From contig JBATEX010000114.1 in assembly GCA_049664225.1 (NCBI GenBank), positions 56,351 through 120,350 on the forward strand: 64,000 nucleotides of DNA. The letters are read 5' to 3'. The notes below the pieces were generated by a model. The model saw nothing but the letters and a program-made list of their open reading frames with translations. It did not search any database and was not told the origin of the DNA. This DNA comes from Thermoanaerobaculia bacterium (lineage in GTDB: Bacteria > Acidobacteriota > Thermoanaerobaculia > Multivoradales > JAHEKO01). Below, piece by piece: positions 10,287-57,985 of the stretch. Position 1 is the first letter of the stretch. Each line of letters opens with the position of its first letter. The position numbers and the translations under genes were made by a program.

Positions 10287-10328
10287 CCCAGGGGGCTTTC
10301 CTCCCTCCCGGTGCAAGAACCCCCTGAG
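10287..10328. repeat. family B hairpin element (CCAGGGGG / CCCCCTGG stem with a conserved ~24-nt loop), copy 1 (divergent loop)
   Basis: CCCAGGGGGCTTTCCTCCCTCCCGGTGCAAGAACCCCCTGAG. Confidence 0.7.
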
Positions 10329-10480
10329 ATCCCCAACGACACCTGGACCAGATCCTCGTCGTCTGCGCAAGACCCGAGTACGGGAACCGGTGATGTTGCG
10401 CCGTGCACGCCCACCCACCCCGGCCGGCAGAGGCGCCACGGGCGGGGGCAAGCGCAGACCCGACGAAGAATGGTGGTCAT

Positions 10481-10506
10481 CCAGGACCCAGGACCCAGGC
10501 CCCAAG
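10481..10506. repeat. short tandem repeat (CCAGGAC) 3 times, same heptamer family as 14877
   Basis: CCAGGACCCAGGACCCAGGCCCCAAG, adjacent to the family-C fragment GGCGGGGGCAAGC at 10441-10454. Confidence 0.7.
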
Positions 10507-10518
10507 ACGGGTGGGGCG

Positions 10519-11880
10519 TCAGGTGCCCAGGTTGAATTTCTTGAGGCGGTAGCGGAGCTGATCGCGGGTGACGCCCAAAAGCTCTGCGGCGCGGGTCTGG
10601 TTGTCGCCGGTGGCGGCCATGGCGCGTGTGACGAGTTGGCGTTCCATCTCCTCGAGAGGAACAATGGGAGCCTCTGTAGGTGCGGCCTCGCTTCCTGGGA
10701 ATGCACCGGCCATACCGACCTCGTTGAGGATCAGCGCGGCAGGCTGAATTTCGGGCGACTTCTCGAGAATCATGGCGCGTTCGACAACATTGCGCAGCTC
10801 GCGCACGTTGCCGGGCCAGGAGTAGGAGAAAAGCAGATTCTCGGACTCGCGGCTGAAACCCTTGAACTTGCGGCCCATCTTCGGCTGCAAGGTCTCCAGG
10901 AAGTGATTGGCGAGGGGCAGGATGTCTTCCATCCTCTCGCGTAGCGGAGGCACCCGAATGGGGAAGATGCTCAGGCGATAGAAGAGGTCCTGCCGGAAGG
11001 TACCCTCTCGCACCATGGAAGCCAGATCTCGGTTGGTCAGGCCAATGACTCGCACATCGACTTGGATCTCCCGGGAGCCACCGATCCGGCGCAGCTTCCT
11101 TTCTTCCAGCACGTGCAGCAGCTTGGCCTGGAGCTCCAGCTTGAGCTCGCCGATCTCGTCGAGGACCACCGTGCCGCCATCAACCAGCTCGAAGGCACCT
11201 TTTCGGGTCTCCTTGGCATCCGTGAAGGCGCCTCTCTCATGGCCCAGGAGCTCGCTTTCAATGAGGGTGTCGGGCAGCGCCGCGCAGCTGATCTCGAGAA
11301 TCTGCTTCTTGTGTCGATCGGAGAGAGCGTGAATATGCCGGGCCAGGACGTTCTTTCCGGTGCCGCTCTCGCCCTCGATGAGAATGGTGTCGATGTCGGA
11401 TTGGGCGACCTCGTTGATGACATCGAGGACCCGGTTGCAGGCATCGGATTCCGACACGATGTCCACCTGGATCTCGCGTTCCCGGGTCTGGCGGGCCGCC
11501 TGCACCTCCAGCTGCTCGCTGCGAATGGTCAGGGACTTCTCGATGAGCTTGACCAGGTCGGCCTGGTCCACCGGCTTGCTGAGGAAGTCGATGGCACCCA
11601 ACTTCATGGCTCGCACCGCCTCCTCGATCTGGCCCATGGCGGTCATGACAATGACCACAGTGTCCTCGAGTCGGCGGAGGTTGCGCTCGAAGAAATCGAG
11701 ACCGTTACCGTCGGGCAGAGAGATGTCCAGCAGCAGCACGTCGGGCTGATGATCGTCGAGATGCTCTCTGGCGGTGGCCAAATTGGGCGCATCGTGGACG
11801 TTGTGGCCCACGCGCTTGAGCTGCTCCGTCAGAGCCCAGCGCAGGAGCTTCTCGTCTTCGACGATGAGGATCAGGGCCAT
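10519..11880 (-). CDS. sigma-54-dependent response regulator (NtrC/Fis family)
   Basis: N-terminal receiver (MALILIVEDE...). AAA+ sigma-54 interaction domain with GESGTGKNVLARHIH and ESELLGHERGAFTDA (GAFTGA-like). C-terminal Fis-type HTH (QTRAAELLGVTRDQLRYRLKK). Confidence 0.9.
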   Translation of the reverse strand: MALILIVEDEKLLRWALTEQLKRVGHNVHDAPNLATAREHLDDHQPDVLLLDISLPDGNGLDFFERNLRRLEDTVVIVMTAMGQIEEAVRAMKLGAIDFLSKPVDQADLVKLIEKSLTIRSEQLEVQAARQTREREIQVDIVSESDACNRVLDVINEVAQSDIDTILIEGESGTGKNVLARHIHALSDRHKKQILEISCAALPDTLIESELLGHERGAFTDAKETRKGAFELVDGGTVVLDEIGELKLELQAKLLHVLEERKLRRIGGSREIQVDVRVIGLTNRDLASMVREGTFRQDLFYRLSIFPIRVPPLRERMEDILPLANHFLETLQPKMGRKFKGFSRESENLLFSYSWPGNVRELRNVVERAMILEKSPEIQPAALILNEVGMAGAFPGSEAAPTEAPIVPLEEMERQLVTRAMAATGDNQTRAAELLGVTRDQLRYRLKKFNLGT

Positions 11881-56817: not shown

Positions 56818-56832
56818 GCACAGTTCCTGAGA

Positions 56833-57906
56833 ATGTCAGAAGTCAAAGCGGATCGACGGGTCCTGCACTGCGACATGGACTGCTTCTATGCCGCCGTGCA
56901 CATGCGGGACGACCCGACTCTCGCCGGCAAGCCGGTTGTTATCGGAGGTAGCCCGGAAGGGAGGGGGGTGGTGGCCGCTGCGAGCTACGAAGCGCGCCGA
57001 TTCGGAATTCGCTCGGCGCTGCCCGCCGCTCGCGCTGTCCGGCTGTGCCCCCAGGCGATCTTCATCCGGCCGGACTTCAATCGATATCGGGAAGAGTCGC
57101 AGTATATTGTCGAGATCTTCCGCGACTTCACGCCGGTGGTTCAGAAGGTCTCGATCGACGAGGCGTACCTCGATGTCACCGATCAACTGGAGCCCCGGGG
57201 TAGTGCCACGGCGGTAGCAAAAGAGATCAAGCGCCGCGTTAGAGAGGAACGGGGATTGACGGTCAGCGTGGGTGTCGGCCCGAACCGCCTGGTAGCCAAG
57301 ATCGCCTCCGACTTCGACAAGCCGGATGGCCTGACGGTGGTCAAACCGGCCCGTGTTCAGGCGTTTCTGGACGTTCTGTCAGTGAGGACGCTCCCTGGCG
57401 TGGGTCCGGCCTCGGAGCGTCGGCTCCTACGATCGGGGATCGAGACCATCGCCGACTTGCGGGCGGTTCCCAGGGATCGCCTCGAGACGCTGTTCGGGAA
57501 GCACGGCCAGTGGCTCTACAACTGCGCGCGGGGCATCGACGAGCGTCCGGTCCGAACCCACCGGGAACGCAAGAGCCTCAGCTGCGAGCGAACGTACGCC
57601 AAGGACCTGCAGCGTCTCGAGGAAATGGACCAGGAGCTCGAACGCATGGCCGAGCGGGTAGGCCGCGGGCTGAAGAAACGCGAGCTGTCTGCCCAGACCG
57701 TGACGATCAAGGTTCGGTACGGCGATTTCACGACGTTGACGCGATCGTACACCTTGCCAAGCCCGACGTCAGACGAACAGGTGATGGCGACCTGGGCGTA
57801 CCGGCTCTTGCGAAAGACGGAGGCCGGGCGGCGCAGCGTCCGCCTCCTGGGCCTCGGTGCCGGAAACCTCGTCCACGGAGAAATGTCCCAGCTGGAGCTG
57901 TTCTGA
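56833..57906 (+). CDS. dinB: DNA polymerase IV
   Basis: RRVLHCDMDCFYAAVHMRDDPTLAGKPVVIGG...RGVVAAASYEARRFGIRSA, the Y-family polymerase N-terminus. Confidence 0.9.
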   Translation: MSEVKADRRVLHCDMDCFYAAVHMRDDPTLAGKPVVIGGSPEGRGVVAAASYEARRFGIRSALPAARAVRLCPQAIFIRPDFNRYREESQYIVEIFRDFTPVVQKVSIDEAYLDVTDQLEPRGSATAVAKEIKRRVREERGLTVSVGVGPNRLVAKIASDFDKPDGLTVVKPARVQAFLDVLSVRTLPGVGPASERRLLRSGIETIADLRAVPRDRLETLFGKHGQWLYNCARGIDERPVRTHRERKSLSCERTYAKDLQRLEEMDQELERMAERVGRGLKKRELSAQTVTIKVRYGDFTTLTRSYTLPSPTSDEQVMATWAYRLLRKTEAGRRSVRLLGLGAGNLVHGEMSQLELF

Positions 57907-57934
57907 CCTCAGATGGGTGAGGGTCCGTCGCGGG

Positions 57935-57985
57935 ACCCCCCAGGGGGCTATCCTCCCTTCCGCTGCAAGAAGCCCCTGGGGGTCC
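57935..57985. repeat. family B hairpin element, copy 4 (extended stem)
   Basis: GGGACCCCCCAGGGGGCTATCCTCCCTTCCGCTGCAAGAAGCCCCTGGGGGTCCCC, 30 nt after the dinB stop. Confidence 0.75.

Follow-up and report, generated by a model that had tools for sequence, protein, structure and literature searches.

Four hairpins dispersed through a 64,000-nt stretch of contig JBATEX010000114.1 (assembly GCA_049664225.1) from a Thermoanaerobaculia bacterium, hereafter the window, belong to a repeat family in which a 24-nt loop and the adjoining inner stem are constant and the remainder of the arms differs between copies with its complementarity kept. In its copy number, its confinement to one lineage, its mosaic and nested structure, its gain and loss in a patchy pattern and the way it disrupts assemblies, the element behaves as a repeat of the kind that includes repetitive extragenic palindromes (REPs), their hairpin-forming doublets (REPINs) and MITEs (transposable elements that are miniature and have inverted repeats). 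We favor, with moderate confidence, the explanation that the hairpins are a non-autonomous, lineage-specific palindromic repeat of this kind and that a factor encoded elsewhere recognizes the loop and inner stem or uses them as its joining site. If this is true, they constitute a new miniature palindromic repeat family in uncultured, ecologically important marine-sediment Acidobacteriota.

On the plus strand of the window, the strand on which the hairpins had been noticed (the first-read strand), the loop reads CTATCCTCCCTTCCGCTGCAAGAA exactly at 24134-24157, 39376-39399 and 57948-57971 and as a variant with three substitutions at 10296-10319, which agrees with the original prediction of an invariant loop in three copies and a diverged one in the fourth. 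No loop matches are expected by chance, and none were found in shuffled sequence. A covariance model of 113 distinct relatives, whose orientation puts the window copies on the minus strand, recovered precisely the same four copies at E < 0.1 (10267-10348, 24105-24186, 39344-39428 and 57918-58000, all minus strand; 65-89 bits), the next match scoring below 14 bits. The predicted size of ~40 nt was too small: the hairpins measure 78-88 nt overall with arms of 26-32 nt, and inverted-repeat tracing pairs 10266-10295 with 10320-10349 in copy 1 (30 nt), 24102-24133 with 24158-24189 in copy 2 (32 nt), and 57921-57946 with 57973-57998 in copy 4 (26 nt). These three (10266-10349, 24102-24189 and 57921-57998) are the longest hairpins in the window. 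All four copies are intergenic and lie on the same strand, as had been stated:

10266..10349, minus strand: copy 1, an 84-nt hairpin with the variant loop (covariance model, 72 bits)
24102..24189, minus strand: copy 2, an 88-nt hairpin of B type (covariance model, 89 bits)
39344..39428, minus strand: copy 3, a degenerate chimera (covariance model, 65 bits)
57918..58000, minus strand: copy 4, a 78-83-nt hairpin, variant of A type (covariance model, 87 bits)

Alignment of the relatives on the loop (alignment A4) divides the repeated unit, a hairpin of ~85 nt, into four zones. The base is short and recurrent (GAGGT..ACCTC or GGGT..ACCC); the middle of the stem, 10-15 bp, is wholly different in sequence between copies and nonetheless keeps its complementarity; the inner stem is constant (CCAGGGGG/CCCCCTGG); and so is the 24-nt loop that it encloses, the invariant columns of the alignment being those of the loop and inner stem. 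Standard pairs make up 95.4% of the cells, and 17 of the 24 pairs show double-sided changes (333 cells). None of 500 shuffles reached the observed values, and partner columns that were slid out of register were at most 69% paired. Compensatory stem variation around a conserved loop, which the prediction had proposed from four copies, is thus borne out across the family. The arm types intergrade, and in the larger data set single-linkage clustering merges them into one cluster; the 'subfamilies' (A type, B type) are only convenient labels. A protein-coding reading of the element was rejected, because the frame of the open reading frames (ORFs) relative to the loop differs among copies. As for the variable arms serving as guides, singleton arms had no match elsewhere in the collected 1.27 Mb, a small sample.

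The two strands do not fold equally well. In all four window copies, the reverse complement of the first-read strand is the more stable by 8-23 kcal/mol, with minimum free energies on the minus and plus strands, respectively, of −62.7 and −48.8 kcal/mol for copy 1, −69.6 and −46.8 for copy 2, −40.6 and −32.5 for copy 3, and −60.8 and −47.1 for copy 4. The plus-strand hairpins in the window are still stable (−47 to −49 kcal/mol, z-scores −3.8 to −4.8); in copy 3, only the inner stem pairs well and the fold is no better than that of shuffled sequence (z = −1.05 and −1.6). Across the family, stem mismatches on the first-read strand number 159 for A·C and C·A taken together and 10 for G·T and T·G, and an A·C mismatch on this strand is a G·U wobble on its complement. 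The same bias is found among non-redundant arm types (19 vs 2, p = 2e-4) and, counted as G·U, among alignment cells (334 vs 34). With GAAA in place of the loop, the complement was more stable in 104 of 113 copies and the first-read strand in 3, with a mean difference of 8.6 kcal/mol. On this fold-competent strand, which is the minus strand of the window, the loop reads UUCUUGCAGCGGAAGGGAGGAUAG, and the pairs U·G (113/113) and U-A (112/113) lengthen the stem into the loop. The anti-Shine-Dalgarno-like CCUCC that had been pointed out belongs to the first-read strand; pairing is selected on the other strand, where the loop carries GGAGG.

Deamination of an exposed sense strand or lagging-strand template would give the opposite polarity, and we infer from this that the bias reflects selection on folding of the complement strand, as single-stranded DNA (ssDNA) or as RNA. 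A constant loop on a stem that is merely paired, and paired best on one strand, has the look of substrates of strand-specific nucleases or recombinases, which is why we consider loop and inner stem a candidate recognition or joining site. The structure would then act as a single-stranded nucleic acid, either ssDNA or a transcript in the antisense direction; the loop and inner stem would be bound in a sequence-specific manner, or cut and joined, by a protein encoded in trans; and the middle of the stem would need only to pair. Effects on neighboring transcripts, such as stabilization of 3′ ends or a barrier to antisense read-through, would be secondary. The pattern of conservation (constant loop, free arms, strand-specific pairing) is reversed relative to classical REPs and MITEs and, if the explanation is true, shows where the partner protein should bind.

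The feature was predicted as four copies in one window and is in fact a dispersed repeat, of which 214 copies (164 distinct) were collected in 1.27 Mb of DNA. In a scan of one genome per species, the exact loop pattern occurred in 62 stretches, all of them in four Acidobacteriota/Thermoanaerobaculia metagenome-assembled genomes (MAGs), on both strands and many at contig ends. At least 120 stretches of sediment metagenomes carry the pattern as well, and the names of their samples point to sediments of coastal and marine origin or to wetlands; no match was obtained in viral contigs, phage records or plasmids. The expected conservation in related genomes is found. Over 51342-58610, the window itself matches contigs of MAG FCS_M_Acidobacteriota_05 at 93-96% identity; two metagenome contigs match it at 99% in the 2.5 kb surrounding copy 4; and a database entry identical to the window's DinB is labelled Thermoanaerobaculia; orthologues of copy 1 are present in three of the collected loci (designated by L numbers; L065, L069 and L138). 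Rfam 15 holds no family for the element, with no match in the window at the gathering threshold and, for the loci, nothing but generic hairpin models of miRNA precursors, matched below threshold; our literature search turned up no work on repeats of this lineage. Given the many copies at contig ends, the repeats break short-read assemblies. They also reshuffle intergenic DNA between close relatives and mark gene 3′ ends in the lineage. One locus (L012:5315-5464) contains a very long, near-perfect version of the hairpin that pairs far into its flanks (122-150 nt traced, −86 kcal/mol).

Presence of the element at a given site is patchy. One relative at 93% identity to the window lacks copy 4, yet has the element where the window has none. 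MAFFT alignment of the window with L038 and L021 showed no clean empty site, the spacers being rearranged. Filled and empty pairs do exist among the loci: in L155 compared with L006, the imperfect 8-nt direct repeats TCAGGGTC and TCAGGGGC enclose ~172 nt made up of head, hairpin and tail, and other pairs are not clean. Among dinB orthologues, the copy-4 element is present in L070, L104, L117, L183, L185 and L186 and absent from L038, L184 and L187-L190. Because all other loci had been fetched by means of the loop, we drew a loop-independent sample of nine relatives, consisting of DinB orthologues fetched by protein together with L038. The element follows dinB in three of the nine, with loops matching at 24/24, 24/24 and 23/24 positions, part of one arm being deleted in the last; the other six lack it, and its absence is unrelated to DinB identity. 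This sample replaces a comparison of orthologue pairs, in which the loop was 99.7% identical against 80-85% for the flanks, a statistic biased by the fact that both members had been fetched by the loop pattern. At L187:2151-2646, whose DinB is 92% identical, a BrnT/BrnA-type toxin–antitoxin pair follows dinB where the window has copy 4 and msrB.

The loop is also where copies of different history meet. Against its orthologue in L069, copy 1 is 53% identical in the 5′ arm and 97-99% in the 3′ arm, and the window segment 10320-10440 (the 3′ arm and the next 90 nt) is ~99% identical to L065, L069 and L138, loci that are ~75-77% identical overall; by sequence comparison, this contrast indicates that copies have recombined at the loop or, alternatively, that the segment is unusually conserved. 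Copy 3 matches its orthologue in L161 in loop and 3′ arm, and its 5′ arm is replaced by an arm of another subfamily. Pairing is confined to the inner stem in 21 of 172 distinct uncut copies, several of which are visibly chimeras that combine arms of different subfamilies or join an arm to another module. With arm histories that differ on either side of it, the loop behaves as a crossover point.

To place the copies relative to genes, we called genes with our own codon-usage caller and checked the calls against Pfam hits. Only 6 of 187 non-redundant copies lie inside called genes. The upstream gene is co-directional with the first-read strand in 120 copies and opposed in 45 (73% of 165 scorable; p = 5e-9), and the base of the hairpin lies a median 80 nt past its stop codon; the four window contexts had appeared to have little in common, an impression that gives way to this shared placement behind a co-directional gene. 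Orientation and strand bias together put the fold-competent strand antisense to the gene behind which the element sits, and this antisense placement is paradoxical. Convergent contexts account for 47 of 115 fully scorable copies and tandem (+,+) contexts for 33, and convergent intergenic regions are enriched in hairpin-bearing spacers. An orientation driven by replichore was rejected, as orientation in 113 loci tracks the adjacent gene and not GC skew; where the adjacent gene opposes the skew, orientation is split 17:17. All four window copies are on one strand and the sign of the GC skew is constant in the window; L142 has copies of both orientations within 3.5 kb.

The predicted unlikelihood of a uniform terminator role is confirmed by the signals around the hairpins. 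On the sense strand, 0.8% of copies have a T-run of four or more after the hairpin, and on the other strand 0% do; a terminator scan found none at the hairpin copies. Simple scans for sigma-70-type promoters at these copies were likewise negative. The stop codon and the element are usually separated by small hairpins of canonical look that have T-rich tails. The original prediction of a small structured RNA or protein-binding element accordingly fares differently in its two halves: protein binding is our best guess for the loop, and a small-RNA gene is not supported, as the simple scans revealed neither promoter nor terminator and the copies behave like DNA modules that are gained, lost, nested and recombined. 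Only once expression is shown could the element count as evidence for a new class of regulatory RNA.

Position behind a co-directional gene would be expected of a sense-strand 3′-untranslated-region (UTR) element, that is, a protective stem-loop or a source of small RNA whose C-rich loop, UCCUCCCUUCC, pairs with Shine-Dalgarno-like sequences. The 120 co-directional copies among 165, with their median distance of 80 nt from the stop, fit this explanation, as do the stability of the sense hairpins in the window copies (−47 to −49 kcal/mol) and the complementarity of the loop to GGAAGGGAGGA. It is made distinctly unlikely by the pairing, which is kept on the other strand and leaves its A·C mismatches on the sense strand, by the 27% of copies that are oppositely oriented or in divergent spacers, and by the missing terminator tail. 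Moreover, since the small T-tailed hairpins usually precede the element, much sense transcription may stop before reaching it.

An RNA made from the fold-competent strand, antisense to the neighboring gene, would instead agree with the polarity of the G·U pairs, which is strongly one-sided and opposite to the C-to-T bias of an exposed sense strand. Such a transcript, coming from the intergenic space or the convergent gene and heading for the 3′ end of the neighboring gene, could carry the hairpin as a barrier, processing site or stabilizer; the hairpin could also be the structured end of a cis-antisense RNA, and the loop would bind a host factor. In favor are the 47 convergent contexts among 115 and the enrichment of hairpins in convergent spacers; the hairpin and a second, longer repeat described below (the long form, LF) both aim their fold-competent strands at the nearest gene 3′ end, and orthologous sites keep the loop even as their flanks diverge. 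We nevertheless regard this explanation as possible but unlikely: no U-tract follows the hairpin on the fold-competent strand, simple scans show no promoter, 33 copies occupy tandem (+,+) contexts, where it is not obvious what antisense transcription would start from, and patchy presence in close relatives and chimeric arms are unexpected for a regulatory element that is needed.

Several observations weigh against the mobile-repeat explanation that we favor. No transposase, integrase or other recurrent gene adjoins the copies, and six-frame translations of the 1.27 Mb around them contain no HUH/Y1 motif. For the larger unit, neither clean terminal inverted repeats nor a consistent target-site duplication could be delimited. 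The loop is kept far better than is predicted for neutral selfish DNA, even in the broken-arm copy of L183. The tie of orientation to the adjacent gene (120 vs 45) and not to GC skew points to an interaction with transcription units, and a fold-competent strand antisense to the gene is not what a simple ssDNA-transposon model predicts. Separately, a recurrent neighbor gene was sought by clustering 370 neighboring proteins and rejected, only Ser/Thr kinase-TPR paralogues and other ordinary families being recovered.

The element can be compared with several known systems. It resembles REPs and REPINs in being short, extragenic, palindromic, present in high copy number and lineage-restricted, and REPINs in forming hairpins of ~100 nt that are mostly downstream of genes and persist at orthologous sites; examples are the REPINs of Pseudomonas fluorescens and the GTAG and CGTC superfamilies of REPs (PMC3116915, PMC3733652). 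G·U-type pairing in REP stems has been taken as a sign of single-strand function (PMC3733652). REPINs are mobilized in trans by RAYT, a single-copy Y1 HUH transposase (PMC3116915, PMC3733652); no RAYT gene flanked by copies was found in the copy-bearing DNA (1.27 Mb). Conservation in REPINs is a property of the arms (the REPs) and is least in the spacer or loop (PMC3733652, PMC3116915), the reverse of what we observe, and unlike REPs, which bear such a tag at the foot of the palindrome, the copies in alignment A4 have no GTAG or CGTC tag in common.

The long inverted arms, location near coding regions, presence/absence polymorphism and nested or composite copies are features in common with MITEs such as Correia/NEMIS of Neisseria, ERIC/IRU and RUP. 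Bacterial MITEs are 70-300 bp, a size comparable to that of the element, and form long hairpins in transcripts (PMC3733652, in part). The terminal repeats of MITEs are their conserved, transposase-binding part, whereas here the arm sequence is free to vary and terminal recurrence is limited to 4-5 bases (GAGGT/ACCTC). No parent insertion sequence with the ends of the hairpin was found in the collected DNA, and target duplication is represented by the single imperfect case of L155 versus L006, unlike in MITEs. The origins of rolling-circle replication cut by HUH enzymes present an invariant nonanucleotide in the loop of a hairpin, and IS200/IS605 elements have subterminal hairpins. The element is reminiscent of such substrates in its invariant loop, its variable and merely paired stem, its putative action on one strand as ssDNA and its joints at a conserved site; it differs in its 24-nt loop, its stem of ~30 bp, its hundreds of dispersed copies and the lack of a Rep or TnpA gene nearby, so that the comparison is one of analogy and not of membership. 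Integron attC sites were considered and rejected: the foot of the hairpin has no R″/R′ core sites (RYYYAAC / GTTRRRY), and the copies, instead of forming cassette arrays next to intI, are spaced 14-18 kb from one another and have ordinary genes around them, in both orientations.

In E. coli, BIMEs and RIP (RIB) elements consist of inverted REPs around a conserved motif at operon ends, the central L motif being bound as duplex by IHF. The element could, in the same manner, serve a nucleoid or topology protein as a duplex DNA site or a cruciform where transcription units end. The spacers are indeed mosaics of several recurrent modules, in which inverted palindromic units are combined with short motifs; a conserved central motif lies between inverted arms; and both gene 3′ ends and convergent spacers are enriched in copies. 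Nevertheless, BIME arms are conserved REPs and the arms here are variable, we know of no strand-asymmetric wobble pattern in BIMEs, and mismatches in a duplex site should show no strand asymmetry, which is ~10:1 or more in our data. Duplex binding also needs no pairing of the arms, yet they co-vary, and the loop as read contains no IHF consensus of the E. coli type. We consider a duplex site very improbable. The three rival explanations are distinguished mainly by the binding partner that each assigns to the loop and by the kind of molecule involved.

The hairpin is one of several modules in its intergenic surroundings. The flanks of non-orthologous copies have in common a G-run head to the left of the hairpin, (GGGTCCT)n..CAGATGACCACGATCTTGT, short repeats of the CCCCTAAG type, and small GC-rich stem-loops whose tails are rich in T; the order in which the head, the hairpin, the CCCCTAAG-type repeats, LF and the small stem-loops follow one another is fixed and recurrent. 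The hairpin is usually part of larger units of ~130-200 nt that combine the G-run head and the hairpin with a tail or a decayed second hairpin, are found at gene 3′ ends and recur at loci that are not orthologous. The modules identified around the window copies are:

24067..24101, plus strand: module on the left side of the copy-2 unit, with a degenerate GGGTCCT-type G-run head, then ..CAAATGCTCATGATCTTGT (flank comparison)
24201..24237, plus strand: decayed second loop (GCTCCATCCCTTCAGCTGGAATAA), a tandem-hairpin remnant after copy 2 (weak covariance-model match)
35818..35959, plus strand: partly deleted copy of LF (scaffold and 5′ flank common to the hairpin)
39440..39469, plus strand: partial loop-like fragment ..GTATTCCCGTCTCTTGCAAGAACCC downstream of copy 3 (TGCAAGAACCC at 39459-39469; weak covariance-model match)

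The head at 24067..24101 is common to non-orthologous B-type copies (blastn of 24050-24250 matches L006, L027 and L039) and, in filled-versus-empty comparison, is gained and lost jointly with the hairpin. In ~15% of copies, window copy 2 included, the hairpin is followed at ~20-32 nt by a second loop and arm in decayed form, a feature enriched over background at that position; the amplified unit can thus reach ~200 nt, and decayed copies exist.

LF is a repeat of ~164 nt built on the scaffold GAGGTTCGTTCGGGTGG..CAGGGGG / CCCCCTG..CCCGGACGGACCTC, in which ~106 nt of other cargo replaces the 24-nt loop; its outer and inner stem and 5′ flank match those of the hairpin in its fold-competent orientation. 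Its 21-bp terminal stem shows many UA/UG/CG exchanges and its interior is conserved. Twenty-one full copies occur in the first 62 loci plus the window (for example, L059:1115-1278 and L061:2313-2476), and a search by core motif yielded 58 non-redundant copies in all collected DNA; none matches an Rfam family. The hairpin stands upstream of LF in a fixed, inverted relative orientation in 43 of these 58, and the fold-competent strand of LF also points at the nearest gene 3′ end. One proposal takes both repeats together: loop and inner stem would be the site of a trans-acting enzyme or RNA-binding protein of marine Thermoanaerobaculia, and hairpins and LF would form a polar system of gene 3′ ends that works on the strand running into the gene, either as a new hairpin-guided recombination or mobile class with no linked HUH transposase or as domesticated barriers to antisense transcription. 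We hold this combined proposal to be quite doubtful. A third palindromic repeat is inserted within LF copies: a separate REP-like family of the TGTAGGGGCGGG..CTTGC..CCCGCCCCTACA type, found in the window at 14512-14608, 59881-59924 and 60819-60872, is nested in the LF copies L062:271-480, L043 and L014.

Around the LF copy of the window, three tandem 47-nt units at 35595-35736 (plus strand) each consist of a small GC hairpin (GGCCGG..CCGGCC) and TTTGAGGGCTTGGGGGTTGA. Inverted units at ~35990-36140 make the spacer 35566-36159 a large imperfect palindrome around LF, and judged by their sequence the units look like stacked terminator-type modules for two convergent genes. Tandem G-run octamers and heptamers (GGGGTCTT, GGGGCATT, GGGTCCT, CTAGGGG) directly follow stop codons on the sense strand, as at L186:2600-2660 and L184:2590-2680 and, in the window, at 24067-24085 and 55222-55260 (TAGGGGCCTAGGGGGCTAGG..), with C-run versions on the far side of spacers; in the lineage, these are candidate G-quadruplex motifs of gene 3′ ends.

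The genes next to the window copies are ordinary ones. Copy 4 starts 14 nt past the dinB stop (57906), ahead of msrB (58073-58564); copy 3 lies between the divergent genes 36159-39131 (minus strand; a multihaem cytochrome) and 39458-41725 (plus strand); and copy 2 begins 43 nt past the stop of a PMT_2 glycosyltransferase gene (22512-24059, plus strand). Copy 1 is flanked by the gene of a sigma-54 response regulator (10519-11880, minus strand) and a sigma-54-type promoter-like motif, TGGCCCATTCCTTGCA, at 10238-10253 on the minus strand, 13 nt beyond the copy on that strand. The ORF that overlaps copy 1 (9803-10480, minus strand) is probably over-extended, and a shorter gene from 10198 or 10213 fits better. 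A receiver-like ORF beginning MRFLVLDGSHLL.. (9803-10213, minus strand) follows the sigma-54-type motif, directly downstream of the sigma-54 activator gene.

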